A stretch of DNA of 64,000 nucleotides from a virus. Location: the IMG/VR virus record IMGVR_UViG_3300021256_000098; one strand, 5' to 3'. Of the stretch, positions 9,398 through 53,581 are shown one piece after another. The notes below the pieces were generated by a model. The model made no database searches and was not told where the DNA came from. It saw only the letters and a list, made by a program, of their open reading frames with translations. A program made the translations under genes and the position numbers. Numbering within the stretch: the first letter of the stretch is position 1; the number at the start of each line of letters is the position of its first letter.

Positions 9398-9424
9398 TGC
9401 TAATATTTGTTTTGAGGTGATTTG

Positions 9425-9550: not shown

Positions 9551-9593
9551 ATAAAAGACTGTCGCAGTTAATACTGCGAGGGAGGAGGCGAAC

Positions 9594-9788: not shown

Positions 9789-9910
9789 ACATTTTTGCAC
9801 CACCTCTGTATAAAGTAAGAAAATTCCCTTTATCACTTTTAATAGAATGTGATTTCAAATTAAGTGATAATAAAGAATTAGACAAGTATTTAGTTAATCA
9901 GCAAGACAAT

Positions 9911-35500: not shown

Positions 35501-37844
35501 GCATAAAAACCAAACTTCTCTCATCAATGAGTTAGGCGAAGAAATCATTGTTCGTAATGGTAAATGGTTTACTCTCAATAATGGCTATCCTACTTTTGCA
35601 AAACTCCGGCGCGGTGACATAATTTTCAATCATAAACAAACAGAAGAATTGTTGAAGAATGGTTATGTCACCAATTCTCATGCTCGTATATTTGGTGCGG
35701 CTCGTGCAGCAGGAACAGTCAGCGGTACTGCATTTGCAACTGGAACGAAAAAATCTAAATCATCTAAGAATACATCTTCTGATAAAACAACAATTGATTG
35801 GCTTGAAATTCTGCTTGACCGCGCAGAACGTGCCGTTAAAAAACTGACTGATAAAGTTGGAAACACTTTTGCAAAGTACACATATCGTTTACAAGATGTT
35901 GCAAAAGCAATTACATCTACTCAGTCTGAAATCGCCAAACAACGCAAGGCGCAAGCTGCTTATCAGAAAAAAGCAAATGCTGTAAAACTTTCTGCTGGCT
36001 TAAAAAAGCAAGTGCGCGAAGGTGCATACTATATTTATGATTATGATGAGAAAACCCAAAAACTCATTAACGATTATAAAGAGTGGTATGAAAAGAGTTT
36101 AGACGCCAAGGATGCTATTGATGAATTAACTGAATCGTTAGGCGAGTTAGCGCAGAAGGCGTTTGACATTGTATCAAAAGAGTATGCGAATGAGTTTGAT
36201 ACATTAGAAAACCATGGAAAGTTGATTAGTGGCGCGGCAGACCTTGCAGAAGCAAGAGGGTACTTTGTTAATAGCGGCACGTATACCGATCTTATTGGTA
36301 TGGAACAACGCAAACGCGATAAAGGCATTAAACAATACAATGACTTAAAAGCACAACTTGATAAAGCTGTAAAATCCGGCGCGGTCGCAAAATTTTCCGA
36401 AGAATGGTGGGCGATGTCGAACGAGGTTCGTGAAGCCTCTATTGCAATTCAAGAGTGCGATGTAAGCATTGCAGAGTTCCAGCAAAAGATCAATGAGTTG
36501 AACTGGGAGAAGTTTGATTATCTGCAAGATACAATTAGTAAAGTAATTGACGAATCTAATTTCTTAATTGATTTATTGGAAGATTCGGATTTATTTACTG
36601 ATTCGGGTCAGCCTACATCTGAAGGCTGGGCAACGATTGGATTGCACAGTTCTAACATTAAAGTGTATCAAGATCAAGTTAAGCAATACGCCAAAGCTAT
36701 TCAAGATGTAGACAAACAACTCGCCAACGATCCGTATAATAAAGAACTGATTTCTCGCAGAACTGACTTATACGAAGCGCAACAAAAAGCTATTCTAGCA
36801 GCCAAAGATGAAAAGAAGGCTATTTCTGATTTAATCGAAGATGGTATTGATAAGCAAGTCGATCATATTAAAACTCTGATTGATACTTATACAGATGCTT
36901 TAGATGAAGCAAAGAGTTTATATGATTATCAGCGGAAGGTCACTGACCATACCAAAGAAATTGCTGCTATTCGTAAACAAATTGCGGCTTATAGCGGCGA
37001 TGAATCTGATGAATCCAAAGCACGTATTCAGAAATTACAAGTTGACTTAGAAAATGCAGAGAACGATCTTAAAGATACTGAGTATGATAAATATGTATCT
37101 GACACGAAGAAATTATTAGACAATTTCTATACACAGTACAAAGAAGATATGGAACGCCGTGCCGAACATTCTGATTCGTTGGTAGATGAATTGATTGGAC
37201 AAGTAGACAGTCATTCCACAGAAATCAATGATGTTATTCGGACTACAGCAAAAGATGTTGGTTATACGTTATCTTCTTCTATGAGCACACTAATCAGTGA
37301 CACAAATGGTGGATTAACAAATATTACATCTATGTTGCAAACCATTAGTGACTACATAAAAGAGATGGCTGATGTTGCGGGTAAAACAGAGTTAAATAAA
37401 AACGGAGATCCTGTTGTGAACAGCAATGGCGAAGTTCAGTATGTAAAACCCAAAAAATGGGTATCTCGAACCAGTATCACGACAGGAGATCCTTCTAAGA
37501 GAGTAATTTCTGCTGACAGTAATGGCGCATCTATGCTCTCAACGATGAGTAATTTGCGTCCTATAACTCATCGTACCATTGGCGTTAAACCAACAATGTA
37601 CCGCAATGGCAATAGTTTATTAAGTATGCCTGCCGTCGGATATGACACTAATAGCACAGGTGGCAATATCAATATCGCGGCAACAGCTAATGTAAGTATC
37701 GACCATGTATCTGACTACAATGATTTTGTAACGCAGTTACAGCACGACAAACAATTTGAATCTATGATTCAGTCCATGTCTGTTGATCGTCTTGTCGGCA
37801 AAACGTCTTTAGCCAAGAATAAATATAATTGGAGAAATAATTAG
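32499..37844 (+). CDS. tail tape measure protein, C-terminal portion (1781-aa ORF; the real start is probably at or after 32582, and is uncertain)
   Basis: Begins with a hydrophobic segment, then has >1000 aa of coiled-coil and a C-terminal globular region. Contiguous with part 1 except for the ~1.07-kb insert. Confidence 0.6.
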   Translation: MSYPQFGQIKALLDTSSLPHSGHLISAIYHPSLQKLYHILQLKEIGNIFKALQNGKNFGDIKDSLDGLTKFGRAVTGKGLARLHAKGAIDDSTWKAARNRLGLDASDAANAASLIDTVSGKVNSLKTALSGLKQIGSNGLSTIASGLQQIISAGEGATNIFQGVWAMLKQGGTMFMGSSLPIVAMIAAATVALKKAYDAAHEYENAHQKAVDSQSSYDSTISEIDTLNSKLDTTKQRLNELRTMRSNGTISVTDKAELDRLERENTELETRQKLLEGEAKRQQRTASIDAVGALKAKEQSQYMKEHGYETEEAVNYTDKITAVRQDLQYLDQLYRNRSDLEQRLISAYNSGDTKTQDNLKSQLNDNEAEIEKYHETLSKTMPEIEKYRDTLQQDTNLGSIAGGEQALTAASQLMNMWQNIGTSQSAAEKTLSQLNTFFDGSSNNTAIKDQIIEMMDAATPASDALHMLGLSLQDLGVEATPENLAAFNKYFGELKQQAEDAATSVKTLQDEVDGTMSGIATAMESQNAGANYEQLDQYLTKAKSLYDSGLVGTDDFKTVAKMISTGGADIEKAVQDFSTNYANLQKYFTKDSSGNFTRTGIDKFVSDLEATGKTFHSTAEAADALGISAGAFEVILGRLGDYDIKKYGDNAFDGMVKSAAAFEQAKENLSQLQTLYDNMDEGGRKDALGDKLSNWESQIDKAQTDLESLDTDIVLQMKLEYDLDSLRNEIDEARSVAQAGGDATTWATAISKQQKYTQVSEHAMGIDREGIELPVSYKIAKESFADLQSQLKEAVDNGDTELIAKLQPQVENAGELVNSLDDAIRESKPELSPTLDVSEANKQLSDWEAQSRNTKLVKEAYINYITGGQEAPEEMDALMDYILAHQDNPEDTQAMLDYIKSHQDNPDDMQAMLDYLLKHQDDPNPMKAALDYWKRTQEGATQSNTKVNYRRGSQEGPAPKTAFVHYIASGVAGAVRRAKDWVSQHAPHAQGTAHAFGSWGLHKNQTSLINELGEEIIVRNGKWFTLNNGYPTFAKLRRGDIIFNHKQTEELLKNGYVTNSHARIFGAARAAGTVSGTAFATGTKKSKSSKNTSSDKTTIDWLEILLDRAERAVKKLTDKVGNTFAKYTYRLQDVAKAITSTQSEIAKQRKAQAAYQKKANAVKLSAGLKKQVREGAYYIYDYDEKTQKLINDYKEWYEKSLDAKDAIDELTESLGELAQKAFDIVSKEYANEFDTLENHGKLISGAADLAEARGYFVNSGTYTDLIGMEQRKRDKGIKQYNDLKAQLDKAVKSGAVAKFSEEWWAMSNEVREASIAIQECDVSIAEFQQKINELNWEKFDYLQDTISKVIDESNFLIDLLEDSDLFTDSGQPTSEGWATIGLHSSNIKVYQDQVKQYAKAIQDVDKQLANDPYNKELISRRTDLYEAQQKAILAAKDEKKAISDLIEDGIDKQVDHIKTLIDTYTDALDEAKSLYDYQRKVTDHTKEIAAIRKQIAAYSGDESDESKARIQKLQVDLENAENDLKDTEYDKYVSDTKKLLDNFYTQYKEDMERRAEHSDSLVDELIGQVDSHSTEINDVIRTTAKDVGYTLSSSMSTLISDTNGGLTNITSMLQTISDYIKEMADVAGKTELNKNGDPVVNSNGEVQYVKPKKWVSRTSITTGDPSKRVISADSNGASMLSTMSNLRPITHRTIGVKPTMYRNGNSLLSMPAVGYDTNSTGGNINIAATANVSIDHVSDYNDFVTQLQHDKQFESMIQSMSVDRLVGKTSLAKNKYNWRNN

Positions 37845-38211: not shown

Positions 38212-39501
38212 TTGGAGGTGTTGCAAATGTATATCCGTGACTTTGAATATGACGGACAAAGGCTGAGTGATTTTGGTTTTATTGTAGGCAATGTTGATGG
38301 TAACGCAGGAACAGAATCAATCAATCCTGGCTATGATTTAACATTTAACACAGTAAGCACACGGTACGGTCAACGGTGGCTATCGGCGGGGACGCAATAT
38401 GATGAATGTTTGCAATCATCCATTCAAATTTGCAAAGACCCATGTTGTGCAGATGGGTTAGCTATTACTTCTACAGAATATCGCAATCTTGTACGATGGC
38501 TCAATCGTAAACAATTTTTACCGTTTCGTGCTATAAATACTAGCAATAATTTATTGATGGACGTTTACGCACCGAGCCTAAAAAAAGTTAATGCCCCTGC
38601 GGATCGTTACCTATCAGATGCCGCCAATATAAATACAACCGGTGCTTTTGTAGGAGTATTCGACCTCCCCGATCCAAAGGCGAATTATGTATACCGCATT
38701 ACTTCGACAGATGGTCAACGACGCATGTTATGCTGGTACGCTGGCACACACCCCCCGCTGCACGTTGGTTTAACTTATCGTATGTCGTGTTATGCAAAAG
38801 CGAATTCTGGAAACCCTAATTTGCGTTTATTTGTAAATGCAGTAGCCAGCCAGTTTTTTGAATTAACATCTGAATGGAAACGCTACGAGTATGTATTCAC
38901 CGTTCCGGTCTACGACGGCACCCCCCCCGATCAATATATGCGTGTATATTTTGGGCTAGGCGAATCGTCTGGCGCATGTGAGCTTGATATGTGTGGGTTT
39001 CGACTTGAACAAGTATCAGATATTTTATGGTGCGATGCTAGTTTTAATATGACTAAGACTATGGTTGATGGGCGTTGTTATGGCGTTGAATTGACAATGC
39101 AAACAAATCGACCGTTTTGTTATGGTGATACCATCTCCCAAACGCTAACTTTTGATGAAGTTAATGCAACGGCTACCATAGATAACCAGTCTGATGAGTT
39201 TGGATATATGTATCCGACTGTAGTAATTACATGCAAGCAGGCCGGAGATTTAACTTTAACAAATACTTTTGCTGATTGTACGACTGTCATTAAAGGATGT
39301 TCGTCTGGCGAAAAAATTACTATGTCCGGCGATACGCAAATTATTACTACATCAAAATCTAGTCATAAACTCTCAAAAAATTTTAACTTTGAATTTTTGA
39401 GATTGAATCGTTCTTATGAACAATCAGACAATATTATATCAGCCTCTCTCCCCTGCACAGTGAAAATTACATATAATCCAATTATAAAAGATGTATGGTG
39501 A
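38212..39501 (+). CDS. distal tail protein (Dit)-like, with an inserted ~150-aa carbohydrate-binding-like module
   Basis: Position after the TMP. The module LMDVYAPSLKKVNAPADRYLS...CELDMCGFRLEQVSD is shared with the fibre protein 46407-49892. Confidence 0.5.
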   Translation: MEVLQMYIRDFEYDGQRLSDFGFIVGNVDGNAGTESINPGYDLTFNTVSTRYGQRWLSAGTQYDECLQSSIQICKDPCCADGLAITSTEYRNLVRWLNRKQFLPFRAINTSNNLLMDVYAPSLKKVNAPADRYLSDAANINTTGAFVGVFDLPDPKANYVYRITSTDGQRRMLCWYAGTHPPLHVGLTYRMSCYAKANSGNPNLRLFVNAVASQFFELTSEWKRYEYVFTVPVYDGTPPDQYMRVYFGLGESSGACELDMCGFRLEQVSDILWCDASFNMTKTMVDGRCYGVELTMQTNRPFCYGDTISQTLTFDEVNATATIDNQSDEFGYMYPTVVITCKQAGDLTLTNTFADCTTVIKGCSSGEKITMSGDTQIITTSKSSHKLSKNFNFEFLRLNRSYEQSDNIISASLPCTVKITYNPIIKDVW

Positions 39502-39507
39502 TGTGGA

Positions 39508-42500
39508 ATGGATATAAAGATTAAATTCGACGACGAATGTATGCCACAGACTCCTACATTTGTACTTGCTACACGCAGCGGAGAGTATATTGGCGCGGTG
39601 CCTGCTGTTAATATTACGTGTAAAAACCCATGGAATGCTAATGCTGATTTAATGTTTCGAGTCTATAAATATGATAATGACGTAGAGTATCAATACTGGC
39701 ATGAATTAAAAGACTTTAGATTGGTTTGGTGTAGAGAATGGAATGCGTGGTTTGAGATTTCAGTAGAGTTAGAAGAAGCTCCTCATATATCAAAAATTAT
39801 TACTTGTACTTCTTTAGCAGAAGCAGAATTGGGACAAATCATGTTATATGAGACTGAAATCAATACTGAGGATGATATTGCTCGTTCTGATTATATACCG
39901 ACAGTGTTATATCAACCAGACAAACCGCGAGGTTCTTTATTAACGCGCATACTCAAAAAGGCTCCAAACTATATCATTGAACATGTAGATGACAGCATTA
40001 AAAATATCCAACGAACTTTTTCATTTCACGATGTGAGTATTTACGATGCTTTTCAAACTATTACAGAAGAAATAGATTGTATTGCGATCTTTCGCGCTTA
40101 TACTACAGATACAGGGGAAATTAAACGCTCTATATCTGTATATGATTTAGAAAATTCTTGTTCTGCATGTGGTGAACGAGGAACTTTTGAAGATATATGT
40201 CCAAAATGTGGCAGCACAAATATAACACCCGGATACGGAGAAGACACTACTGTTTTTGTTTCAGTAGATAATTTAGCTGATAATATTAACTACACTACGG
40301 ATGTAGGTTCTGTTAAGAATTGTTTCCGGTTAGAAGCTGGGGACGATTTAATGACTGCGGCGATTGTGGCTTGTAACCCGAATGGAACACAATATTTGTG
40401 GCATTTTTCGGACGATATGAAAAGCGATATGTCGCAAGCATTAGTAAAAAAAATCAACAACTATGACCAACTTTATCAATCATACCTCACCACCCACGAG
40501 ATTAGTATTGAAAACACTAAGTTATTGCAACAATATAACCAGATTGTTACGAAATATAATAATTTACATTCACAAAATTTTTCAACCATTGAATCGCCTT
40601 TGCATGGTTTTTCAGAACTAATGCGTGCGTACTACAATGTCATAGATTTTGATTTGTATTTATCCCACGGTATGATGCCATCCCCTCCCCCCGCTCCTGA
40701 TTCGGCTACCGAGCAAGCAACATTGTTAGAGACGGAGCATATGCCTGCTGTAGCTGTATTATCTATACCAAAGTGTACAGTTTCTACAGCATCAAGTGCG
40801 GTGCAGGCTATGGCTCGTGTAGTTGTAGACCCTCACTTCCAAGTTCGCGTCGGAGACAGTGCATTGAGTGATATAACAACAGAAGCATCTGGGGAGCAAT
40901 ATCGGCAATGGACAGGCACGTTTGTTATTACGAATTATGATGATGATACTGATACGGCTACAACTAATAGTATTTCTATTAGAATCACAAACGAATATAT
41001 AAGCTATGTTCAGCAACGTATGCAGTCTCTTTTGGATCGACACAGTGAAGACGCTTCAGATATTGTTACTTTATTTCAGTTACCCATTGCTAACTTTAAG
41101 CAAGAATTAAAAAAGTATGGACAAGCATCTTTGCAAATATTTTATGATGCTTGTCAGTCTTGTATGGATGTTTTAATTCAGCAACAGGCGTATGCTGATT
41201 ACACAGATGTAGCAACAAGTTATTATAACAATTATTATGAACGATTATCTGCTTTATCTGATGAATTAGCCGTGAGAGCATCGGAGATTGCTGTTGTGTC
41301 TGGACAACAGGTTGGAGTGGTTGCGGGGCATAGTATGTTAGAAATCTTACAGGCTAAACGCACCAAAATTCAAGCAGCACTAGATTTTGAAACTTATTTA
41401 GGTGAAAATTTATGGTTAGAATTTTCGTTATATAGACGAGAATGCTCGTTCTCGAACAGCAACTATATTTCTGATGGCTTAGATAATTTTCAGTTATTTC
41501 AACGCGCACAAGAGTTTTTTGATAAAGCATCCCAAGAGATTTATAAATCAGCCAATTTGCAACACTCTATTACCGCTACTCTAAAAAATTTGTTAGCTAT
41601 GGAAGAATTCAAACCTTTAGTTCAACATTTTCAGTGTGGTAATTGGATTCGTATTCGAGTCGATGACAATGTTTATCGTTTGCGTTTAATAAGTTATGAC
41701 ATAGATTTTGATGATTTAACACATATAACAGTTGAATTTTCAGATGTAAAGCAAGTTTCTAATGGTGTAACTGACGCAGAAAGTATTTTTGCACAAGCCA
41801 AACAAATGGCAACCTCTTACACTGCAACACAGAGACAGGCCAGTAAAGGCAATAAGAGCAGCCGACAAGTGCAAAATTGGGTAGACGATGGTTTATCATT
41901 AACTACCATGAAGATTGTGAATGATGCTAGTAATCAAGATATTGTTTATTCTGATAGTGGCATTACGTTACGCGAAAAAATCCCGTTCACCGACGAATAT
42001 GATCCGCGCCAAATTAAATTGATAAATCAAGGGTTGTATGTCACGAATGATAATTGGCAAACGTCCAGCGCAGGGGTTGGACACTTTTATTATTATGATC
42101 CTGCTACTGGAAACATCGTTGATGATTATGGTGTTATAGCAAATACTATTGTCGGTAACTTATTATTAGGTAAGAATTTAGGTATTTATAATTCAGACGG
42201 CAGTGTAACAGTTAATGAGAATGGATTGACTTTAACAACAAATACTGATGATGACCAATCGCAAAAAAATATCTTCACCATACAAAAAGAAACGGATAAT
42301 CAGGATGGCACAAAAACAACCATTCCCCTCTTATACATTGATGACGACGGAAACCTTGTCTTAAACGGTTCGATGAAAATTGTATCTGATATTGAAGGAG
42401 TTACTACACGTACCTTTGACGATGTCGCTGCGGATGTAGACGAGATCAAATCGCAAGACAGATATCGTGTTGAAACGGTTGTATCTGGTGTCAACATTTT

Positions 42501-42726
42501 TAATTCAAGAAACCAGAGCAGTCGCATGGAATGTCATGTGTATTCGTGGGATAAAGATATCACTGATACTATAAATGCTTCGTGCTTTGCGTGGCATCGT
42601 CATTCTGCGAACCCAAACTCAGACGCGACATGGGATGCCGCTCATAAAGGCATGAAATATATTGTTGTATCAACAGAAGATGTGTTTCAGAATGCGTCGT
42701 TTACGTGCGAGGTTACGTTAGAATAA
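39508..42726 (+). CDS. tail-associated lysin / baseplate hub (Tal)-like protein (1072 aa)
   Basis: Position after Dit. Large multi-domain protein. Confidence 0.45.
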   Translation: MDIKIKFDDECMPQTPTFVLATRSGEYIGAVPAVNITCKNPWNANADLMFRVYKYDNDVEYQYWHELKDFRLVWCREWNAWFEISVELEEAPHISKIITCTSLAEAELGQIMLYETEINTEDDIARSDYIPTVLYQPDKPRGSLLTRILKKAPNYIIEHVDDSIKNIQRTFSFHDVSIYDAFQTITEEIDCIAIFRAYTTDTGEIKRSISVYDLENSCSACGERGTFEDICPKCGSTNITPGYGEDTTVFVSVDNLADNINYTTDVGSVKNCFRLEAGDDLMTAAIVACNPNGTQYLWHFSDDMKSDMSQALVKKINNYDQLYQSYLTTHEISIENTKLLQQYNQIVTKYNNLHSQNFSTIESPLHGFSELMRAYYNVIDFDLYLSHGMMPSPPPAPDSATEQATLLETEHMPAVAVLSIPKCTVSTASSAVQAMARVVVDPHFQVRVGDSALSDITTEASGEQYRQWTGTFVITNYDDDTDTATTNSISIRITNEYISYVQQRMQSLLDRHSEDASDIVTLFQLPIANFKQELKKYGQASLQIFYDACQSCMDVLIQQQAYADYTDVATSYYNNYYERLSALSDELAVRASEIAVVSGQQVGVVAGHSMLEILQAKRTKIQAALDFETYLGENLWLEFSLYRRECSFSNSNYISDGLDNFQLFQRAQEFFDKASQEIYKSANLQHSITATLKNLLAMEEFKPLVQHFQCGNWIRIRVDDNVYRLRLISYDIDFDDLTHITVEFSDVKQVSNGVTDAESIFAQAKQMATSYTATQRQASKGNKSSRQVQNWVDDGLSLTTMKIVNDASNQDIVYSDSGITLREKIPFTDEYDPRQIKLINQGLYVTNDNWQTSSAGVGHFYYYDPATGNIVDDYGVIANTIVGNLLLGKNLGIYNSDGSVTVNENGLTLTTNTDDDQSQKNIFTIQKETDNQDGTKTTIPLLYIDDDGNLVLNGSMKIVSDIEGVTTRTFDDVAADVDEIKSQDRYRVETVVSGVNIFNSRNQSSRMECHVYSWDKDITDTINASCFAWHRHSANPNSDATWDAAHKGMKYIVVSTEDVFQNASFTCEVTLE

Positions 42727-42869
42727 TTGAGTCAATTACCCACCCACTAAAGTGAGTGGGCTTGTAACTCCCCAGTAGTGCGAACGTCTTGTGACTCCTA
42801 CCTTTGGCTTATCTGATTACTCAGATAGTGGGGTTACATCGCAGGGTGATTGACTGCACCCTTATCATC

Positions 42870-44030
42870 TCAGACGTGCTGAGATGATACTGTATCCGGT
42901 ACTTGACTATCCTTTGCAAGATAGTTGATTCCCATGCGATACAGATTCATTGCTCCGATACGGTCATCATTGGACGTGTAACCGCAAGATTTACAGCAGA
43001 AGATATGCTTATTTTTATCACGGTTAGACTTTTCCGTGTGACCGCAAACAGGACAGGTCTGGCTCGTATAACGAGGGTCTACGTTAATTACTAGACTCTC
43101 GTTGAGCGCAGCCTTATACTTTAACTTCTTCTCCAGGTCGTAAAACGACCAAGATACGGTAACATAACGGTCTTTGCGACGCACCTTCTCTGTGGCAGAA
43201 CGAACGCCGGACAGGTCCTCTAAGACAAAGAGCGTGTGCTTCGGGTTAGACTCAACGAGTGCCTTTGATACACAATGGTTTACATCCTGCATCCAACGGT
43301 TTTCTCGCTGACCGATAGCTTTTAGCCTTCGTCTTGCAGAAGGAGTCTGTCTTTGCTGAAGTTCCTTGCGGAGCTGTTTGTACTTAGCACGTTTTTGCTT
43401 AATATTCCTGCCGCTTACAAAGCCGGACTTATGTTTGCTGTCATAGGTTGCAACGACAAAGTTAATACCCCTGTCTACGCCGACAACATTACAAACGTCG
43501 CAATCCAAGGCTTCAAGGATATCTCTGGTAACTGGGATATGCAGAAAATACTTGCCATGCTTTTTCACAAGTTTGGCAGTGCCAAAGGAGTAGATATCGT
43601 GGTCAAAGTATTTCTCCATGCCACCAGAATAGTATGGCAGCTTCACACGACCGCTAAGTGTATTTACAGAGAACAAGTTCTGCGTAAGAGAATAGTCTCT
43701 ATTCCACACAAGGTCGTATTGAGGATTAGAAAAATCTGGCTTAATCCATTCATGTTGGTTTTCTAAGATGGTTTTGTATCTTGCAATAACCGTCTTAAAA
43801 ACAGATTGTGCCATCTGGGATTTTAAGCCATAGCGCTTACGGAGATCATAATACAATGCCTTATTAAGCGAAAACTGCTTCAGGTCATGCGTCTGGAAGA
43901 TGTAATTTGCCACAAAGTTACACGCACTGCGATAGGTGTCCATAGTAACATCCAACAGCTCACGCTGTTCGGGTGCAACTCGGACCTGAATCTTTGCAGT
44001 AGTAGTGATTTGCATCAGTAACATCTCCAT
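42870..44030 (-). CDS. tnpB: TnpB (OrfB) RuvC-like RNA-guided nuclease of an IS200/IS605 element
   Basis: GVDRG, VLEDL and C-terminal CPVCGH...CCKSCG zinc-finger motifs. 386 aa. Confidence 0.9.
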   Translation of the reverse strand: MEMLLMQITTTAKIQVRVAPEQRELLDVTMDTYRSACNFVANYIFQTHDLKQFSLNKALYYDLRKRYGLKSQMAQSVFKTVIARYKTILENQHEWIKPDFSNPQYDLVWNRDYSLTQNLFSVNTLSGRVKLPYYSGGMEKYFDHDIYSFGTAKLVKKHGKYFLHIPVTRDILEALDCDVCNVVGVDRGINFVVATYDSKHKSGFVSGRNIKQKRAKYKQLRKELQQRQTPSARRRLKAIGQRENRWMQDVNHCVSKALVESNPKHTLFVLEDLSGVRSATEKVRRKDRYVTVSWSFYDLEKKLKYKAALNESLVINVDPRYTSQTCPVCGHTEKSNRDKNKHIFCCKSCGYTSNDDRIGAMNLYRMGINYLAKDSQVPDTVSSQHV

Positions 44031-44098
44031 TCATTGTATTTCACTATAAATTATTATAGCATGGATTTAGTGAATACACAATAGGAGGAACTAAATTT

Positions 44099-44503
44099 AT
44101 GCAAAACCGCTATAATCGCAGAAATAGACGCAAATACAATCTTAAAGTGCATATCGTACTTGTGACCAAGTATAGGAAAGCGTTGTTGCAGAATGGTATC
44201 GACGACTTCGTAAAACGTGCTATAAGCTATCTCGCAGACCAAAACGACTGGACAATTATCGTTATGGAAACGGACAAGGATCACGTTCACATACTTCTGG
44301 AATATGACGCAACAGAACGCATCTGTGACATCATCAGCATCATCAAACAGAGAACAACACATTGGCTCTGGACACGCTACAGAAATATATTAAATAAGCA
44401 ATACTGGGAAAAACACATCTTCTGGTCAGACGGATACTTTGCCTGTAGTATTGGAGAAGTATCATCTGCAACCATTGAAAAGTATATAGCCGAACAAGGC
44501 TAA
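44099..44503 (+). CDS. tnpA: IS200-type Y1 (HUH) transposase TnpA
   Basis: HVHILL HUH motif and a C-terminal Tyr region. 134 aa. Confidence 0.85.
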   Translation: MQNRYNRRNRRKYNLKVHIVLVTKYRKALLQNGIDDFVKRAISYLADQNDWTIIVMETDKDHVHILLEYDATERICDIISIIKQRTTHWLWTRYRNILNKQYWEKHIFWSDGYFACSIGEVSSATIEKYIAEQG

Positions 44504-44583
44504 GAAAGGAGAAAGCGGCTCCTCCCACCTGCTAAAGCAAGTGGGTTTCCGCCGCTAAATGATTTTATGAAAGGATTATATAA

Positions 44584-46398
44584 ATGGCTATTTTAACCAG
44601 TTCTCCGCAGACATTTATTGATATTACCGATCAACGTAAATTATCTGCGTATATAACTGCTAATTTGCCGAAAGTACAAACGGAAGACCCGAATGTGTTA
44701 CCGCATGAATACGAGCCGGATTGGACAACGACAAAACTTAAATTAACGCCCGTAGTGTTCCTCGACCAAACTGAAATTGGTCTTAAAGAAACCGGCTTAA
44801 CTATCTCATGGAAACGTAAAGATGGTTCTGGCGCGGAAACATCATTAGTGTCCGGCGAATCTGTCAGTAATGGTATTTTGACAATTTCTAAAAATGTACT
44901 ACCTACTTCAAGTAGTGGCATGATTACTTATCTTTGTCATATTAGTTTTTACGACAGTGAAACGCAAAGCACTGTAAAGATTACATCTGATTTGACTTTT
45001 ACTCTTGTCAAAAACGCATCTAATGCAAGATTAGCTTATGTGACTGCTGACACTTATGTATTCAAATATAATACAAATTCGACTTTAGTTGGAGCAAAAC
45101 AGGCTACTCTGAGCGGACAAGTACAAGGTGTGCAAATTTCTAAATGGCAATATAAAAATAGTTCAGGTAATTGGGTGGATTATCCGACCACTTCTGATAA
45201 CGATAATATCACAAGTGATACTCTAATCGTGAAACCAACTCATGCAGTATTTGTGAGCAATGTTGCTCAAATTAAATTAGTAACGGATGATGCAGATGTT
45301 TTTGATACTATTAGCATTACAAAGTTATATGATGGAGCGCAAGGCAGCGGTGGCGTAGGAGGTTTATCTGTAGTTCTCGGAAACGAAGCACAGACTATTG
45401 CGTGCACGAAGGATGGCTTAGTTGAATCTGCTTTTAACATTGAAATACCTTTTTCTGCTTATCAAGGTACAACTCAGATTGCATGTTCATGTACGGTTGG
45501 TACTTTGCCTTCTGGTATAACAATTAAAACCAATACTGCGGCTACAGCAAGTGCCGCAGGTAAATTGATTCTAGCGGTAGAAGCCAATGGGACATTAGGT
45601 GGTAAGAATGTCGTAAATGGTTCTATTACTCTTACTTTTGCTGTTTCTGATAAATCTGTCGTTAAGAATTTTACATGGTCTAAATCAACGAAAGGCGCAA
45701 CGGGAGAACCGGGTGCGGCCGGTAAAAACGCGGTCGTTTTCTCTGTTTATGCTCCTAATGGAACAATCGTTCAGAATCAATCTGGTTCTATTACATTGGC
45801 GACTGCTGCATACGACGGCGGCGATGAAATTACGTCCGACGCGACATACCAATGGGCGAAATATGTAAGTGGCAAATGGACAAATATCAGTGGCGCAACG
45901 TCCGCTACATTAAGTGTGTCTGGCAGCGATATTGTTAATATTCAATCGTATCGTTGTACCATGACATATTCTGGGACTACTTATAAAGACATTATTACAG
46001 TAGAAGATAAGTCTGACCCGTATGTATCTGAAATGTTGAGTATTGGTGGTTTTACAGTCAAAAACGGACAAGGTGGATTAGTGCCGTATGTCATTGTTCG
46101 TACAAACCAAAAAGAGGTAGATGCTCTTAAAGGTATTATAAGTACAACAGCACCAAGTAATCCAACAACTGGAACATTTTGGTACGCTATAGATCACAGT
46201 GCTAAAACTGTGACATTAAAAAAATATTCTGGTTCAGCGTGGAAAAACGCAACAGAAAAACAGTCTTTAACTTATACATGGTACAAACAAGATAAAAATG
46301 GCAATGCAGTTACCTTCAATAAGACCGGTAAAGTAATTTATTTATCAGCCGATGATATAGATGTGTTGGCAACTTTGCAATGCGACGTGACACAGTGA
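44584..46398 (+). CDS. tail fibre / receptor-binding structural protein (604 aa, Ser/Thr-rich beta-rich repeats)
   Basis: Position in the tail module; composition. Confidence 0.45.
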   Translation: MAILTSSPQTFIDITDQRKLSAYITANLPKVQTEDPNVLPHEYEPDWTTTKLKLTPVVFLDQTEIGLKETGLTISWKRKDGSGAETSLVSGESVSNGILTISKNVLPTSSSGMITYLCHISFYDSETQSTVKITSDLTFTLVKNASNARLAYVTADTYVFKYNTNSTLVGAKQATLSGQVQGVQISKWQYKNSSGNWVDYPTTSDNDNITSDTLIVKPTHAVFVSNVAQIKLVTDDADVFDTISITKLYDGAQGSGGVGGLSVVLGNEAQTIACTKDGLVESAFNIEIPFSAYQGTTQIACSCTVGTLPSGITIKTNTAATASAAGKLILAVEANGTLGGKNVVNGSITLTFAVSDKSVVKNFTWSKSTKGATGEPGAAGKNAVVFSVYAPNGTIVQNQSGSITLATAAYDGGDEITSDATYQWAKYVSGKWTNISGATSATLSVSGSDIVNIQSYRCTMTYSGTTYKDIITVEDKSDPYVSEMLSIGGFTVKNGQGGLVPYVIVRTNQKEVDALKGIISTTAPSNPTTGTFWYAIDHSAKTVTLKKYSGSAWKNATEKQSLTYTWYKQDKNGNAVTFNKTGKVIYLSADDIDVLATLQCDVTQ

Positions 46399-46406
46399 GG
46401 TGAAGT

Positions 46407-49400
46407 ATGTCAATTTTAACATCTTGTCAAAACACATTTATGGATTTAACCGATCCTGTTGGAATTAGTAATGTTTCGGAACATTATGCTGTATCTTCCT
46501 CTAATAGTACGCCCCCAACAAAATGGTACGACACGCCGCAGACCATGACGATCACGAATAAATATTTGTGGAATTACGAAACAATTACTTACTCTAACAA
46601 CACAACCAAAGATACGGATAAACGTGTTATTGGTGTTTATGGTAGTACCGGTAAAGGCATTTCTAAAGTTACAAATTATTATCTTGCGACTTCTTCATCA
46701 TCTGGAATTACAACATCAACATCTGGATGGTCAGAAGACGCTGAATCCCAAAATGTCACGCCGTCTAAAAAGTATTTGTGGAACTACGAGAAACTAACAT
46801 ACACGGATAATAGCATATACTCTACCGATCCATGTATCATAGGAGCATATGGTGAAAAAGGGGACAAAGGTGATCGCGGTACAGCCGGAACGACCTCGAA
46901 TCTGCTGCTAGACGTCTACGCGTCCACGCTGAAAAAGGTTGACGCACCGGCTGACCGGTATCTGTCGAACAGCAAAAACACAAACACAACCGGCGCGTTT
47001 GTAGCGGCAAGTGATCTGCCCGACCCGAATGCCACACATGTGTACCGCGTTACCTCGACGGACGGGAAACAAAGAATGCTGTGTTGGTACGCTAGTGGAC
47101 ATCCCCCACTGCTTGTTGGCGCAACCTACCGTCTGTCGTGTTACGCAAAAGCCAACAGCGGAAGTCCGAAGCTGCGCTTTGAGATCAACAGTGTCGGGCA
47201 CAAAACCTTTGACATCACGGACGAGTGGAAACGGTATGAATTTACCAAAACGATACCGATTTACGACAGCACACCTCCCGACACTTATCTGCGAGTATAT
47301 TTTGGATTAGGTGATTCATCCAACGCATGTGAGTTGGACCTGTGCGGATTTCGTGTAGAGCAAGTATCGGATGGCATATTTGGACTTGCTGAACACTATG
47401 CGGTATCGTCTTCTAATACCACTGCTCCGAGTACATGGTATGACACCCCGCAAACCATGACCCCCACTAAGAAATACCTGTGGAATTACGAGACGGTCAC
47501 TTACGCGGACGGAACGACTAAAGACACCACGAAACGTGTCATCGGTGTGTATGGTAATACAGGCAATCCGGGAGTCGCAGGTAAAGGAATATCTGCGGTC
47601 ACGAACTACTATCTTGCAACCGCATCATCTTCTGGTGTAACGACTACTACTTCTGGATGGACAACTACAGTACAAAATGTAACTTCATCTAAGAAATATT
47701 TATGGAACTATGAAAAGTTAACGTATACAGACAGTTCCACATATTCTACTGACCCGTGTATCATAGGAGCATATGGTGACACAGGAACGCGAGGAGCCAC
47801 ATGGTATGCAGGAACAGCGATTTCCGGAGGTAGTTCGGTATCTGCAAAGGTGTTTGATAACTCTGGTATAACCTCTGCTATCGTAGGAGATGTTTACTTA
47901 AACACGAGCACTCAAGACACATACAAGTGTGTTAAAGCAGGAAATGCAGCAACCGCACAGTGGACATATTTGAGTAATATCAAGGGCGCAACAGGATCGC
48001 CTGGAGGAAAAGGCACAGACGGGAAAACCGCATATTTTCACGTCAAGTATAGCAATGATGGTGGAAAAACTTTTACAGGAAATTCTGGAGAAGACCCCGG
48101 TACTTATATTGGTACATATACTGATAATACATCTGCGGATAGTACGTCTGTTTCAAAATATACTTGGGTGAAAATTGAAGGCGAAGACGGTGTTAGTCCA
48201 ACTGTGTCTACGTCAAAATCTGGCGCCACAACAACTATTACAATTAAAGACGCACAAGGAATAAAAACAGCAACCGTAAAAGACGGGGACAAGGGTGACA
48301 AAGGTGATAAGGGAACATCGGGTATGAGCGCAAATTTGCTGATGGACGTTTATGCGTCTACACTAACAAAAATCGACGCACCGGCTGACCGGTATCTGTC
48401 GAACAGCATAAACACAAACACAACCGGCGCGTTTGTAGCGGCAAGTGATCTGCCAGACCCGAATGCTACGCATTTGTTCCGTATTACCTCTACTGACGGG
48501 AAAACTCGCATGTTATGCTGGTACGCTGGCACACACCCCCCGCTGTTTACAGGGGCGACCTATCGCCTGTCATGTTATGCGAAGGCAAATTCCGGCAATC
48601 CGAAGTTGCGTTTATTTGTTAATGGAGTTGAGACAAAAACAGTTAACACTACCTCAGAATGGAAACGATATGAATTAACGGTAACTGTATCGGAATACGA
48701 TGGAACTCCAGATAGTAATTACCTTCGTGTTTATTTCGGACTAGCTACATCGTCGGGCGCGTGTGAGTTGGATATGTGCGGATTCCGCGTTGAACAAGTA
48801 TCAGAGGATATTTTAGATATCAAAGATACTGCTAGTAGAGCATTAACTTCTGCTGACGGAAAAAATAAAGTGTTTTATCAAAAGACAGCTCCGACTTCTG
48901 GCATGAAAACGAATGATGTATGGTTCAATACAAAAAAAGACAAAGACCATACTATGAATGTTTATGATGGAACACAGTGGGTGTTGCATAAGGCTGGAAC
49001 AACGTCAATTTCACAAGGAGCAATCACTACAGATTTACTCGCTGCGAATGCTGTAACGGCAGATAAAATATTGGCAGGAGAAATTGGGACAGACCAATTA
49101 GCTGCGAATGCTGTGACAGCTGCAAAAATAAATGTAAAGGATTTGTTTGCACAAAATATCGAAGCAACAGGAACAATCAAGGGTTTAACATTAGAGGGTG
49201 CACAAATTCGCGGAAAACAAATTGATATATGTAATTTGCCTGCGGGCGATTATGACGTATTAGAGCCGCGCTGCTCTATATCTACAAACACAGACACGAA
49301 TAGTTTGGTCTTAGAAGCCAAAGAGGGTGGCTCTACAAATGCTAAATCAATACAAATCAATCCATATAATATATACATTGGCTCCCCAAAAGGAGGAGAC

Positions 49401-49892
49401 ATTATCCTTGCAGGCGAGACTGAATTCACAGAAACCCCTTATGTTTTAAAAGGGGGAGTCGTTTATCCCATAGACGCTTGTATCACTGGAATATACTTGG
49501 ATGGGGTGATAGAGACTTGGCGATATGAGTGGCATATAGGCGGTAGACTTCGTTTAACTATGAAGATTCCAGTAAACCCTGCTGTTAAAACCGCTTTGGG
49601 TAATAGCTATCGTAGTGGGTACTGTTATACTCCATCTGATTATAAATACCCATCATCTATTCTAGATCCAAACACTGACCTAGACGTTGCCATAAAATTC
49701 TCTCAAGTTCCTGTTGTGCAGATGACATTTACCCCGACTAACAATCAAGGTGCATTCGTTTGGGCTACCGACTCTGGAACAACAACAACTCCCCCTCATT
49801 GTTATTTAGTTCGTCCTACCAGTTCAGATAGCGTACAGGGATGGATTAACATTATTGTTGATGGAGAGTGGGAATACACAAATACTGAATAA
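46407..49892 (+). CDS. large tail fibre / receptor-binding protein (1161 aa) with 2 copies of the carbohydrate-binding-like module, 2 copies of a ~140-aa KYLWNYE module and collagen-like G-X-Y triplets
   Basis: Internal duplications are visible at both protein and nucleotide level. GDKGDKGDKG runs. Confidence 0.55.
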   Translation: MSILTSCQNTFMDLTDPVGISNVSEHYAVSSSNSTPPTKWYDTPQTMTITNKYLWNYETITYSNNTTKDTDKRVIGVYGSTGKGISKVTNYYLATSSSSGITTSTSGWSEDAESQNVTPSKKYLWNYEKLTYTDNSIYSTDPCIIGAYGEKGDKGDRGTAGTTSNLLLDVYASTLKKVDAPADRYLSNSKNTNTTGAFVAASDLPDPNATHVYRVTSTDGKQRMLCWYASGHPPLLVGATYRLSCYAKANSGSPKLRFEINSVGHKTFDITDEWKRYEFTKTIPIYDSTPPDTYLRVYFGLGDSSNACELDLCGFRVEQVSDGIFGLAEHYAVSSSNTTAPSTWYDTPQTMTPTKKYLWNYETVTYADGTTKDTTKRVIGVYGNTGNPGVAGKGISAVTNYYLATASSSGVTTTTSGWTTTVQNVTSSKKYLWNYEKLTYTDSSTYSTDPCIIGAYGDTGTRGATWYAGTAISGGSSVSAKVFDNSGITSAIVGDVYLNTSTQDTYKCVKAGNAATAQWTYLSNIKGATGSPGGKGTDGKTAYFHVKYSNDGGKTFTGNSGEDPGTYIGTYTDNTSADSTSVSKYTWVKIEGEDGVSPTVSTSKSGATTTITIKDAQGIKTATVKDGDKGDKGDKGTSGMSANLLMDVYASTLTKIDAPADRYLSNSINTNTTGAFVAASDLPDPNATHLFRITSTDGKTRMLCWYAGTHPPLFTGATYRLSCYAKANSGNPKLRLFVNGVETKTVNTTSEWKRYELTVTVSEYDGTPDSNYLRVYFGLATSSGACELDMCGFRVEQVSEDILDIKDTASRALTSADGKNKVFYQKTAPTSGMKTNDVWFNTKKDKDHTMNVYDGTQWVLHKAGTTSISQGAITTDLLAANAVTADKILAGEIGTDQLAANAVTAAKINVKDLFAQNIEATGTIKGLTLEGAQIRGKQIDICNLPAGDYDVLEPRCSISTNTDTNSLVLEAKEGGSTNAKSIQINPYNIYIGSPKGGDIILAGETEFTETPYVLKGGVVYPIDACITGIYLDGVIETWRYEWHIGGRLRLTMKIPVNPAVKTALGNSYRSGYCYTPSDYKYPSSILDPNTDLDVAIKFSQVPVVQMTFTPTNNQGAFVWATDSGTTTTPPHCYLVRPTSSDSVQGWINIIVDGEWEYTNTE

Positions 49893-51100: not shown

Positions 51101-51628
51101 ATGATTGAAAGAAAATCAATAATTGCCTCTACCCTTGGCGTTCAAAATCATGGTGGCAGTGGTGGAGATGTAGATTTAAGTGAATACAGGAAATATGTAG
51201 ATCAAGATGTGATTGATGCGGCACTGACTGCGAAGGTGACGGCATTAGAAGATAAAGCCGAACGCTTTGTTGTACATTGTACTGCCTCTTCTATCCCGCC
51301 TTTTGGAGGAGCATTTGATATTGCTACTGATAAATCGTTCAATGATATATTATCTGCATACAACAGTAATAGAGAGGTATGCGCTATTTTGACGTCATCC
51401 GCAATGCAAGGTGTTGCATTCCTTACAGGCATTGCTCCGGATGCTGCTATATTTTACACTCTCATTACTTTAGGTTCGCAAAGCAATCTTATGTACTTAC
51501 TCGTTTGTATTAGTAACGATAAACCGTTTGGCGTATTGATGTCTGCAACATATGATGATACTGATATTTCTAATCGCGTTTCCGCACTGGAAACCGCGCT
51601 GACAGGACTAGACGAGGTGATCGGATGA
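51101..51628 (+). CDS. hypothetical (175 aa)
   Basis: ORF preceded by the palindromic motif. Confidence 0.45.
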   Translation: MIERKSIIASTLGVQNHGGSGGDVDLSEYRKYVDQDVIDAALTAKVTALEDKAERFVVHCTASSIPPFGGAFDIATDKSFNDILSAYNSNREVCAILTSSAMQGVAFLTGIAPDAAIFYTLITLGSQSNLMYLLVCISNDKPFGVLMSATYDDTDISNRVSALETALTGLDEVIG

Positions 51629-53136
51629 GTACATATGTTGAGCGTATTCAAGCGCAGATTGATAAAGCGAATACTGCAACGGGAAAAGATGATTCCACGC
51701 TGGTACAAGCCGTTCAATCGCTCGTCGACGGCTACGGTGCAGGCGGCGGCGATTCCGGGGCGGAAGATATGCTGAAAGGCTTGATCGAACGCTCTGCAAC
51801 GGAAATCACGATCCCAAACGGTGTGACGAGCATCGGGGATTATGGGTTTGCATATTATTCCGGCCTGACCAGCATCACGATCCCGAACAGCGTGACAAGC
51901 ATCGGGAGTAATGCGTTTTTTAACTGTGCAAAATTAGCTAGTATTACGATCCCGGGCAGTGTGAAAACCATCGGAACCTTCGCATTTCAAAGGTGTTCAC
52001 AACTTGCCAGCGTCACAATCCTGAACGGCGTGACGAGCATCAAGGATTATGCGTTTTACAACTGTGCAGAATTAGCTAGCATCACAATTCCGAACAGCGT
52101 GACAAGCATCGGGAGTAATGCGTTCAAGGGTATCAACGCGAACGCCGTAATCACTTGCAAATTCGCAGAAGGCGCGGTGTCAGGTGCGCCGTGGGGTGCG
52201 CCAGACACGGTTCAAATTATTTACGAACGACGTGTATATACTGTATATTTTTATAACGGTTCTACGCTGTTACAGACGGTTGAAGGAGTACAAGCAGGAG
52301 GAACGGCGACTTATACCGGGGAGACCCCGACAAGGACTGGCGTGGAGAACCCTGAGGACTATTCGTTCAGCGGATGGTCGCCGTCTAACACCAACATCCA
52401 GAGCAACACATCCTGCTATGCACAGTTCAATTATACTGGCGTGCCGGAGACCATTACGGATAGTTGGGACGACATCATCGCGGCGGTCAACAACGGGACC
52501 TATGCCAGCAAGTACAGCGTCGGAGACACCAAGCAAATCGACCTCGGCACGGAGGGTATCGTGGCTATGCAGATTGCGGCCATCGACACCGACGCGCTCG
52601 CCAGCGGCAGCGGAACGGCGGCCATCACATGGATTTCGCAGCAGCTTATCGCTACGAGCCATCGCATGAACCCGGCCAGAGCCGCAGACCCGGAGGATTC
52701 CTCCAAGTATCAGGAGGGTACGGGAACCATCGGCGGCTGGGAAAAGACGGAGATGCGGAGCTGGCTGAAAGAAACGGTCAAGCCGCTTATCCCGGCGAAC
52801 GTATTGGCAGCCATCAAGCCCGTAACGAAGTACAGCAGGATTTACGACACTTCCGGCAGCGCGGTGAACAACGTCACCAGCACGGAGGATGTATGGATTC
52901 CGTCGGCCAGAGAGGTCGGCTTCACCGGGTACGAGACAGAGGGACCGACCTACACCGGGCTGTTTACGGCCAATGCAGACCGTATCAAGAGCAAGACAGG
53001 CGCGTCCAGCGCCTTGTGGTGGCGGCTGCGGTCCGCTTCCGGAAGCGATACCTTCGGTAATGTGCATTCGGCCGGCTCCTATATCAGTTACAGCGCGTAC
53101 TACTCTGGCGCGGTGGTTCTCGGCTTCTGCATATAA
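51625..53136 (+). CDS. BspA-type leucine-rich-repeat protein with a Listeria-Bacteroides-type repeat and a GC-rich C-terminal domain (WWRLRS-containing)
   Basis: At least 4 LRR_5-like repeats (ITIPNSVTSIGSNAF...), YTVYFYNGS...GETPTR repeat. GC rises to ~60% in the last ~900 bp. Confidence 0.65.
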   Translation: MSTYVERIQAQIDKANTATGKDDSTLVQAVQSLVDGYGAGGGDSGAEDMLKGLIERSATEITIPNGVTSIGDYGFAYYSGLTSITIPNSVTSIGSNAFFNCAKLASITIPGSVKTIGTFAFQRCSQLASVTILNGVTSIKDYAFYNCAELASITIPNSVTSIGSNAFKGINANAVITCKFAEGAVSGAPWGAPDTVQIIYERRVYTVYFYNGSTLLQTVEGVQAGGTATYTGETPTRTGVENPEDYSFSGWSPSNTNIQSNTSCYAQFNYTGVPETITDSWDDIIAAVNNGTYASKYSVGDTKQIDLGTEGIVAMQIAAIDTDALASGSGTAAITWISQQLIATSHRMNPARAADPEDSSKYQEGTGTIGGWEKTEMRSWLKETVKPLIPANVLAAIKPVTKYSRIYDTSGSAVNNVTSTEDVWIPSAREVGFTGYETEGPTYTGLFTANADRIKSKTGASSALWWRLRSASGSDTFGNVHSAGSYISYSAYYSGAVVLGFCI

Positions 53137-53189
53137 TCCGCAAACCCCTAATCTGGCTCCCTTTGTGGGGCCAGATAGGATTTGTCGGC

Positions 53190-53225
<36 letters not shown>

Positions 53226-53254
53226 ATAAAACATAATTTAAGGAGGATATTATC

Positions 53255-53578: not shown

Positions 53579-53581
53579 ACC

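Follow-up and report, generated by a model that had tools for sequence, protein, structure and literature searches.

Three modules of the carbohydrate-binding module (CBM) type are likely to be displayed on the tail hub and on a tail fibre of a virus from gut metagenomes; they are old paralogues that, according to sequence comparison, recombine as cassettes, and a C8 tract in the hub copy is probably no switch. The window, i.e., the whole stretch of 64 kb that was analyzed, contains the adhesion region at the tail tip of a virus of the siphophage type, whose host is probably a Clostridia/Lachnospiraceae bacterium. In INPHARED, no close cultured or deposited relative was detected; the only matches were to an IS element (74% identity) and to a module (31% identity, Dulem virus 39).

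The six-frame translation of the window was searched with a module HMM, which detected exactly three copies of a module of 157 aa on the + strand. The first one (Dit copy, 38551-39021, E 2e-58) covers aa 114-270 of the Dit-like ORF, and the other two, FibA (46902-47372) and FibB (48336-48806), cover aa 166-322 and 644-800 of the tail fibre. The initial annotation had already described a module of ~150 aa occurring once in the Dit-like protein and twice in the fibre; it had found the right places, and its coordinates were off by about 10-20 nt relative to the exact boundaries. Pairwise identities between the three copies amount to 70-76% on the amino acid and 66-73% on the nucleotide level, and the module ends are conserved (NLL-DVYA at the 5′ end, CGFR-EQVS at the 3′ end).

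For the fold of the module, an AF2 model was calculated from an alignment of 35 sequences. This model is all-beta (pLDDT 93.1, pTM 0.89), with top Foldseek matches in the PDB (probability 1.00) to CBM4 (1gui, 2y64, 3p6b), CBM22 (4xup) and CBM16 (2zey) structures, to which the TM scores are 0.55-0.67. The same probability was obtained for the phi812 baseplate CBM-cenC protein (9euf_8), and in BFVD, proteins of phage tails, PblB proteins and CBM-cenC proteins were matched. Furthermore, the profile of the 35 sequences matched CBM22/CBM4 chains of the PDB with E 5e-6 to 8e-4. According to the model, the module is a beta-sandwich of the CBM4/CBM22/CBM16 type, and the structure prediction that had been proposed as a check of the CBM-like nature has thus come out in its favor.

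A cut-off of E<=1e-3 yielded 273 representative proteins of the module family out of 1.84 billion. They were found by exhaustive HMMER search, whereas a word-indexed search with one module as query returned no matches. The median length of the module-bearing proteins is ~1240 aa for the best 150 of the 273. Among the module residues, Y20, Y76 and W109 are invariant in the family and R19, Y63 and Y133 nearly so, which makes them candidate ligand residues only. Judging from the fold, glycans of the host cell wall are the probable ligands of the modules.

Alternatively, the module could be a structural or decorative beta-sandwich, serving as spacer, as stabiliser or in oligomerisation, with no receptor role, and its recombination a neutral by-product of the repeats. 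In this case, the weak match of the single Dit-copy sequence to Pfam CBM_4_9 (E 0.0025), which at 18.6 bits remains under the gathering score of 25.9, would be taken at face value, as would the lack of identified binding residues in the module and the occurrence of similar beta-sandwiches without a binding role, namely Cry toxin domains and cyclases, among the lower Foldseek ranks. However, the best matches, by structure as well as by profile, are genuine CBMs throughout, and the PDB neighbours 3p6b, 2zey and 5w6h are also those of the Tal CBM_3/CBM_4 of Streptococcus thermophilus phages, whose Dit and Tal CBMs bind hosts specifically (PMC9437275). In addition, residues that vary between the paralogues are somewhat commoner outside than inside the predicted strands (36 of 85 versus 22 of 72, as counts alone), and purifying selection acts on all copies. 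A purely structural role is therefore regarded as unlikely, and glycan binding is the reading followed below.

The Dit copy resides in a tail hub gene (38227-39501, + strand) with matches to Pfam DUF6558 N and DUF6558_C (E 6e-29 and 3e-30), the latter at aa 309-421 of the 429-aa protein. The mechanically predicted ORF begins with TTG at 38212, and the true start is likely the ATG at 38227; a GGAGG is located 8 nt upstream of this ATG, and the consensus of the DUF6558 family begins with MYAxDFEYDG. The gene follows a tape-measure-like ORF (32499-37844, 1781 aa, PHROG match) and a 97-aa ORF and is followed by the gene for a 1072-aa protein (39508-42726, + strand). It thus occupies the Dit position, after the tape measure and before the Tal-position (tail tip) gene, and this order is conserved in relatives. 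The 1072-aa Tal-position protein has only a C-terminal PHROG tail-fibre match, and no copy of the module was detected in it with the module HMM.

Within the DUF6558 family, 8 of 32 members match phrog_33 'distal tail protein Dit' (best E 3e-10) and three of 32 match Pfam SPP1_Dit weakly. The hub protein of the window itself has no PHROG match at E<=1e-3, the family profile matched no chain in the PDB, and hhalign against the SPP1 Dit (gp19.1) gave a probability of 2%, which is not significant. The single-sequence AF2 model of the whole protein (pLDDT 35) was unusable. The protein is designated as Dit-like on the basis of synteny, the Pfam name and the transitive PHROG matches.

An alignment with 31 homologues revealed a clean insertion of 157 aa between ...FRAINTSN and ILWCDASFN, by which the Pfam model of the DUF6558 N-domain is interrupted at position 108 of 140. 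In uninterrupted homologues, the N-domain comprises residues 1-140 and the C-domain residues 142-262, and the insertion loop corresponds to residues ~105-113, the domains being placed by Pfam model and not by structure. The insertion is absent in all 118 DUF6558 homologues listed, which are 263-278 aa long, as well as in all 46 full-length matches (~750-860 nt) among 51 Clostridia prophage loci (GTDB). Among the best 150 of the 273 module-bearing representatives, only this Dit combines the Dit scaffold with the module, and scans for exact relatives in IMG/VR and in GTDB genomes, with the Dit-like protein as query, found nothing. Since the module was found in none of the 51 plain-DUF6558 prophage loci (E<=1e-5, retrieved sequence up to 10 kb on either side), a transfer in the direction from fibre to Dit would rest on the wider family being fibre-borne.

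The tail fibre (46407-49892, + strand) has a length of 1161 aa, with the RBS GAGGTG upstream of its ATG at 46407. It is composed of an N-terminal motif, KYLWNYE unit 1, a collagen-like run, FibA, KYLWNYE unit 2, CFSR, a second collagen-like run, FibB and a C-terminal domain. Its first ~17 residues are in common with a 604-aa tail protein encoded upstream (44584-46398, + strand; phrog_3267 'tail protein', E 2e-73). The KYLWNYE motif occurs four times (aa 52, 122, 356 and 430). Collagen-like G-X-Y runs are located directly upstream of FibA (GAYGEKGDKGDRGTAGTT, 46842-46895, + strand) and directly upstream of FibB (GDKGDKGDKGTSGMS, 48285-48329, + strand), so that the duplicated KYLWNYE modules and collagen-like triplets noticed at first inspection are indeed present, the latter as short runs. 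The Pfam match to CFSR (aa 592-637) overlaps the second run. The surroundings of FibB, consisting of CFSR, collagen-like run, module and C-terminal domain, are kept in an IMG/VR relative (L001).

Concerning the age of the copies, synonymous sites are saturated between them (pS 0.57-0.82), with a dN of about 0.2 and dN/dS values of 0.11-0.17 for the three pairs with estimable dS. By these substitution rates, the three copies are shown to be old paralogues under purifying selection. Because of this saturation, they are not recent duplicates, as had been concluded at first from identical stretches of at least 30 nt. Such stretches do exist: the 30-mer quoted at that time was found at 46944-46973 and 48378-48407, thus in FibA and FibB only. 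It belongs to a patch of 80 nt with one mismatch (34 + 45 nt exact; 46941-47020 versus 48375-48454, + strand). A second patch of 39 identical nt is shared by the Dit copy (38722-38760) and FibB (48507-48545), again on the + strand. The longest concordant runs of FibA/FibB and of Dit/FibB are significant by permutation of polymorphic sites (p<1e-4), and those of the other pairs are not. As far as can be judged from the sequences, the identical stretches of 34-45 nt are short gene-conversion patches within the genome. The module was also considered as the target of a diversity-generating retroelement (VR/TR), which was rejected because the mismatches show no A bias, just 22-30% of them involving A in either copy. 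The differences between copies are spread over all codon positions.

Recombination at the repeats was followed in natural relatives. All of this population evidence stems from short-read metagenome assemblies, in which repeats are error-prone; the novel junctions are found in assemblies ERZ28655260 (sample WOLF17-1), ERZ12302818 and ERZ28612947, with SHIW14-1 as a further source sample. In one relative (P0273/L004), the flanks of the Dit gene are 98-99% identical to the window, and the module is of the FibA type (95% versus 67%). Over 438 nt, no difference exists between this Dit module and the fibre module of L004 itself. Furthermore, fibre lengths of 683, 1161 and 1639 aa were observed, corresponding to one, two and three modules in steps of exactly 478 aa. 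On the nucleotide level, the repeat unit of 1434 nt (46902-48335, + strand) equals the distance between the starts of FibA and FibB, and zero, one and two extra units are present in L004, in the window and in L016/L017, respectively. The single fibre module of L004, seen in one contig only, has an A-to-B crossover at a module offset of about 440-449. The fibres of L016 and L017 (P0282, 1639 aa) contain three modules as assembled from short reads. At the junction of the 3-module allele, where the collagen-like run of FibB passes into module A, only about 5-6 nt of sequence are shared, contrary to the prediction of a simple homologous crossover. Both module replacement and changes in module number are in line with the earlier proposal that the repeats are a substrate for recombination, and variation at the repeats, which was to be looked for on the population level, is seen in the relatives.

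It might be objected that these structural variants are repeat-driven artefacts of metagenome assembly and that only the arrangement of the window is real. Many related contigs do break off at the modules or at the IS element, or inside them, a 'short fibre' variant (L012) proved to be a scaffold gap of 100 N and was dropped, and the copy number in L016 is difficult to assemble, as its two 1434-nt units are 99.9% identical (2 of 1434 nt differ). However, the Dit-type and FibA-type modules of the window have no exact run of more than 11 nt in common, so that k-mer graphs are unable to swap them. In the Dit copy of L004, the 5′ junction is unique and marked by 12 private differences within the initial 32 nt, and no N occurs across the junctions of L004. 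Likewise, the short common sequence at the 3-module junction is located outside the 34- and 45-nt common k-mers, and this junction is present in two assemblies, those of L016 and L017, between which 61 differing sites were counted in 8.8 kb. An origin of all variants from assembly errors thus appears quite improbable, and natural recombination between the module copies is the preferred explanation.

The C8 homopolymer of the Dit copy (38921-38928, + strand), initially placed at 38923-38930, is real and unique to this copy. It is part of ACC CCC CCC, encoding Thr-Pro-Pro in a variable surface loop (module residues 121-130), which is the block of lowest pLDDT in the AF2 model. It is best seen as an accident of codon choice, since the other copies encode T-P-P or T-P with mixed codons. 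On the consensus level, no length variants were found in the 15 related contigs carrying the allele, all of which have C8. A frameshift in C8 would remove the C-terminal domain of the hub (aa 309-421) and would be expected to be lethal rather than to act as a switch; the proposed on/off switch is unsupported because such a frameshift would truncate the Dit-like protein, a hub presumed to be essential. An A7 tract (38580-38586, + strand) of the Dit copy is shortened to A6 in the related contig L070, resulting in a frameshifted product of 137 aa; this is possibly a sequencing error, since L070 is a single low-coverage Logan contig. A further homopolymer of the window, T27, is located at 53194-53220. 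The initial reading, i.e., three recent duplicates and a slipped-strand C8 switch of the Dit module, could thus draw on the restriction of C8 to the Dit copy, on identical stretches of 30-45 nt between copies and on one homopolymer frameshift, though at A7, but given the saturated synonymous sites of old copies, the constancy of C8, the expected loss of DUF6558_C and the mixed codons of the other copies it is highly improbable.

In the proposed mechanism, modules on a presumably ring-forming hub and on a presumably trimeric fibre would bind glycans through avidity. As sequence comparison shows, the copies serve as recombination cassettes because their sequence is kept similar, especially at the module ends. 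Short gene-conversion patches have arisen between copies inside one genome, the own fibre module has taken the place of the whole Dit module in one relative, and through unequal exchange between fibre modules the number of modules per fibre ranges from one to three. Whether hub-fibre gene conversion and unequal exchange together amount to a permanent cassette system, regularly used and favoured by selection, through which the glycan specificity and valency of the whole adhesion device are retuned or coordinated, is a speculative extension that we hold to be rather doubtful. If true, it would be a virion-level analogue of antigenic-variation cassettes that works without a dedicated retroelement or invertase.

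To our knowledge, evolved Dits and adhesion devices with several CBMs have been described almost exclusively from dairy phages and phages of lactic acid bacteria. The acquisition and exchange of CBM modules in phages has so far been inferred by comparison from phage to phage. What is new here is an uncultured gut phage in which a protein of another Dit-like family (DUF6558) appears to have captured a CBM-type module, and at another site, with relatives that seem to catch the exchange in action, by a Dit module overwritten by the own fibre module and by fibres with one to three modules. Changes in the valency and specificity of receptor binding by siphophages of gut Clostridia can be addressed with this system in a concrete and testable way. 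Such repeats are also spots where metagenome assemblies of these phages break or mislead.

With the CBM4/CBM22/CBM16 of glycoside hydrolases (Pfam CBM_4_9; 1gui, 2y64, 4xup, 4qpw, 2zey), the module has the predicted beta-sandwich and a profile-level similarity (E 5e-6) in common, whereas the sequence identity is just 13-19%. Those CBMs are part of enzymes, while the module is located in a phage virion with putative ligand binding.

The exchange resembles cassette gene conversion as in pilin antigenic variation or in paralogous domains of phage fibres that evolve in concert, with diverged copies, conserved ends and non-reciprocal exchange; the exchanged segments are patches of 39-80 nt and the whole module (438 nt). 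In contrast to the silent-to-expressed conversion of the pilin type, every copy here is expressed as part of a structural protein. Neither a dedicated recombinase nor a signal sequence was identified, and sequence comparison does not distinguish programmed from occasional exchange.

In the Tal/antireceptor extensions of S. thermophilus phages, CBMs are parted by collagen-like linkers (VR2 host-range region), and phages differ in how many modules they have (PMC9437275, PMC5601072). Unlike there, the modules are part of a separate fibre, encoded downstream of the gene in Tal position, and the collagen-like runs comprise 4-5 triplets and occur only upstream of each module. A further difference is the module paralogue in the Dit-like protein, with documented exchange between Dit and fibre.

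The likeness to evolved Dits of Lactobacillus and Lactococcus phages that had been noted initially holds in terms of function and fails with respect to the scaffold family and the insertion site. The scaffold is Pfam DUF6558, with weak or transitive links only to Sipho_tail/SPP1_Dit. Evolved Dits are defined by an insertion in the C-terminal galectin domain (PMC9437275), whereas here the N-terminal domain model is interrupted at 108/140. The inserted module is a CBM4/22-like sandwich of 157 aa according to its model, in contrast to the CBM of the J-1 type (~250 aa), and the insertion was seen in this lineage only (none of 118 listed homologues and none of 46 full-length prophage matches). As in the evolved Dits of Lactobacillus phage J-1, of the S. 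thermophilus Moineauvirus and Brussowvirus and of lactococcal phages, a hub in Dit position carries, by sequence and model, an inserted CBM-type module, which would project from the ring, and, as in phages with evolved Dits, the same virion bears more CBMs on other adhesion proteins in a 'LEGO-like' manner (PMC9437275).

Searching the whole window with a module HMM located a 157-aa module three times and nowhere else, as claimed in the initial annotation: once in the Dit-like protein (Dit copy, 38551-39021) and twice in the fibre (FibA, 46902-47372; FibB, 48336-48806), all on the + strand. The genes of this region, also on the + strand, are a 429-codon Dit-like ORF (38212-39501) with ATG 38227 as the most likely true start codon, a 1072-aa ORF in Tal position (39508-42726), a 604-aa tail protein (44584-46398) and the 1161-aa fibre (46407-49892). 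Between the two middle ORFs lies a complete IS200/IS605-type element (42870-44503), comprising tnpB (Cas12f1-like TNB/OrfB_IS605, 42870-44030, minus strand) and tnpA (Y1_Tnp, 44099-44503); it is absent from the related contig L004, and several other related contigs end inside it. The tape-measure-like ORF (32499-37844) encodes 1781 aa in the window and L071, 1742 aa in L003 and L005 and 1798 aa in L004, and a second TMP-type protein is encoded upstream (762 aa, PhageMin_Tail, 29145-31433). Downstream of fibre and holin, 51625-53998 encodes a 503-aa LRR_5/DUF6273 protein (480 aa in the related contig L016) and a 138-aa CBM_5_12 protein, which may add to the surface-binding proteins or be associated with lysis.

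The fibre contains four KYLWNYE repeats, short collagen-like G-X-Y stretches upstream of both FibA and FibB, the repeats and stretches having been recognized before, and a Pfam CFSR match (aa 592-637). A motif of about 17 residues is similar at the N-termini of the 604-aa tail protein (44584-44634) and the fibre (46407-46457), MAILTSSPQTFIDITD and MSILTSCQNTFMDLTD respectively, and may be a common baseplate docking peptide.

With one module as query, no match was found in a word-indexed database. An exhaustive search with a three-sequence profile yielded 273 representative proteins (E<=1e-3), of which the best 150 are mostly very long (median ~1240 aa) and include 12 with two full-length copies. 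The AF2 model, calculated from a 35-sequence alignment, is all-beta (pLDDT 93.1, pTM 0.89). It was matched by Foldseek with probability 1.00 to CBM4 (1gui, 2y64, 3p6b), CBM22 (4xup) and CBM16 (2zey) structures in the PDB and to the CBM-cenC baseplate protein of phage phi812 (9euf_8), and in BFVD it neighbours tail and minor structural proteins of phages. The sequence profile by itself matches CBM22/CBM4 PDB chains (E 5e-6). Due to these results, the predicted beta-sandwich, CBM-like fold holds, and the module presumably binds sugar. The same PDB neighbours (3p6b, 2zey, 5w6h) are reported for Tal CBM_3/CBM_4 of Streptococcus thermophilus phages, where collagen-like linkers separate these domains (PMC9437275).

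In the Dit-like protein, Pfam detected DUF6558 (aa 6-112) and DUF6558_C (aa 309-421) with a sub-threshold CBM_4_9 match in between. Among the best 120 database matches, all 118 DUF6558 homologues have 263-278 aa, and the sole long protein is P0001, which is 99% identical to that of the window. In the alignment, a short acidic loop of the homologues is cleanly replaced by the 157-aa module. Furthermore, 51 prophage loci were inspected in GTDB genomes, the majority being MAGs of Lachnospiraceae or other Clostridia, besides a few bins with different labels. In 46 of these loci the match is full-length and covers only ~750-860 nt, hence without the insertion, and the module is absent from all 51 loci within the retrieved sequence (up to 10 kb either side). 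Among the best 150 module-bearing representatives, the Dit scaffold occurs in this protein only. This is evidence that the module entered the Dit-like protein as a lineage-specific insertion.

The Dit assignment is supported, at the level of sequence, by the gene order (tape-measure-like ORF, small ORF, Dit-like gene, large Tal-position protein), by phrog_33 ('distal tail protein Dit'), which 8 of 32 family members match with a best E of 3e-10, and by weak co-linear SPP1_Dit C-domain matches in DUF6558 family members. In evolved Dits, by definition, it is the galectin (C-terminal) domain that carries the inserted CBM (PMC9437275), whereas the insertion found here splits the N-domain model at position 108/140. 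The proposed resemblance can thus be kept for the way in which the protein would work, but not, as far as tested, for the insertion site.

Pairwise, the three copies share 70-76% aa and 66-73% nt identity. The 30-mer from which a recent duplication had been deduced was found again in FibA (46944-46973) and FibB (48378-48407), within an 80-nt tract with one mismatch; a separate exact run of 39 nt is common to Dit copy and FibB. Recent duplicates are ruled out by a third-codon-position identity of only 39-54% and saturated synonymous sites (Nei-Gojobori pS 0.57-0.82). With dN of ~0.2 and, in the three pairs that allowed an estimate of dS, dN/dS of 0.11-0.17, the copies are old paralogues under purifying selection. 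Tracts at offsets 39-118 (FibA/FibB) and 171-209 (Dit/FibB) are far longer than expected (permutation of polymorphic sites, p<1e-4 each; remaining pairs p 0.39-1.0) and are, judged by this pattern, short gene-conversion patches, the second of which joins genes 9.8 kb apart. A DGR was excluded since the mismatches show no adenine bias.

Eight proteins form the 90%-identity cluster of the Dit-like protein; one of them, P0273, combines the same scaffold with a FibA-type module. On its 46 kb contig, L004, the Dit flanks match the window at 98-99% identity, and the module is much closer to FibA (95%) than to the window's Dit copy (67%). It shares 438 consecutive identical nt with L004's own fibre module; its 5' junction is a private mosaic and its 3' junction lies exactly at the conserved GAACAAGTATCAGA. 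The Dit-type and FibA-type modules of the window share no exact run of more than 11 nt, therefore the swap could not have been created by an assembler. In the Logan contig L070, the Dit copy turns fibre-type at offset ~88, shortly before the contig end, which points to a further partial conversion.

In L004, the fibre lacks exactly 478 aa compared with that of the window and has a single module, A-type up to offset ~440-449 and followed by the FibB tail and C-terminal region. P0282, a member of the fibre cluster, in contrast has 1639 aa (1161 + 478) and three modules, and is present in two assemblies with 61 differing sites over 8.8 kb. Its extra 1434-nt unit has 2 differences from the neighbouring unit, and the junction lies at module offset ~0-6 with only ~5-6 nt of shared sequence. 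The suggested role of the repeats as recombination substrate is borne out by the module swap and by fibres with one, two or three modules. An apparent short fibre in L012 was discarded as a scaffold gap, and the repeats trouble assemblers, as several related contigs end at modules or the IS element. An otherwise unrelated viral contig (IMG/VR UViG_3300014043_000017, 9131-11359) encodes a 742-aa fibre with a different N-terminus; its CFSR, long collagen-like run, single module (73-75% aa identity) and C-terminal domain are shared by the second half of the fibre in the window. This suggests that the latter is a fusion of two fibre architectures.

Variation had been considered for the repeats, where it was found, and for a C8 tract, which was confirmed and occurs in the Dit copy only, at 38921-38928, two bases from the position first given. 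At consensus level, C8 is unchanged in 15/15 related contigs carrying this allele. It reads ACC CCC CCC (Thr-Pro-Pro; mixed codons for the same peptide in FibA, Thr-Pro in FibB) and encodes the lowest-confidence loop of the AF2 model, and with a frameshift at this site the hub protein would lose its whole C-terminal domain. The on/off switch hypothesis is therefore not supported. A homopolymer change was seen solely in the A7 tract of the Dit copy (38580-38586), which is A6 in the low-coverage contig L070 (1461-1906) and gives a 137-aa truncated product there; it may be an error. A T27 homopolymer (53194-53220) was noted between genes, where it immediately precedes the RBS and ATG of the gene at 53255. 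Its apparent counterpart in L016, where no other T run reaches 12 nt, is T16 at 9890, again shortly before a gene (at 9940). If the sites correspond, this tract, unlike C8, would vary in length.

Taken together, the Dit-like protein carries one and the fibre two of three paralogues with CBM fold, which are maintained by purifying selection and connected by conversion patches, with whole-module replacement in a relative and changing numbers of fibre units. The modules would bind host cell-wall glycans, and their multivalent presentation, by the hub ring as well as the collagen-like, probably trimeric, fibre, would give avidity; recombination among copies could alter specificity or valency. Most similar among known systems are the evolved Dits and multi-CBM Tal/antireceptor extensions of lactic-acid-bacteria phages (PMC9437275; PMC5601072). 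The window differs from these in its DUF6558 scaffold, the insertion site in the N-domain and the CBM type and in that hub and fibre both carry paralogues of a single module, and its lineage provides direct evidence of module exchange between the two.
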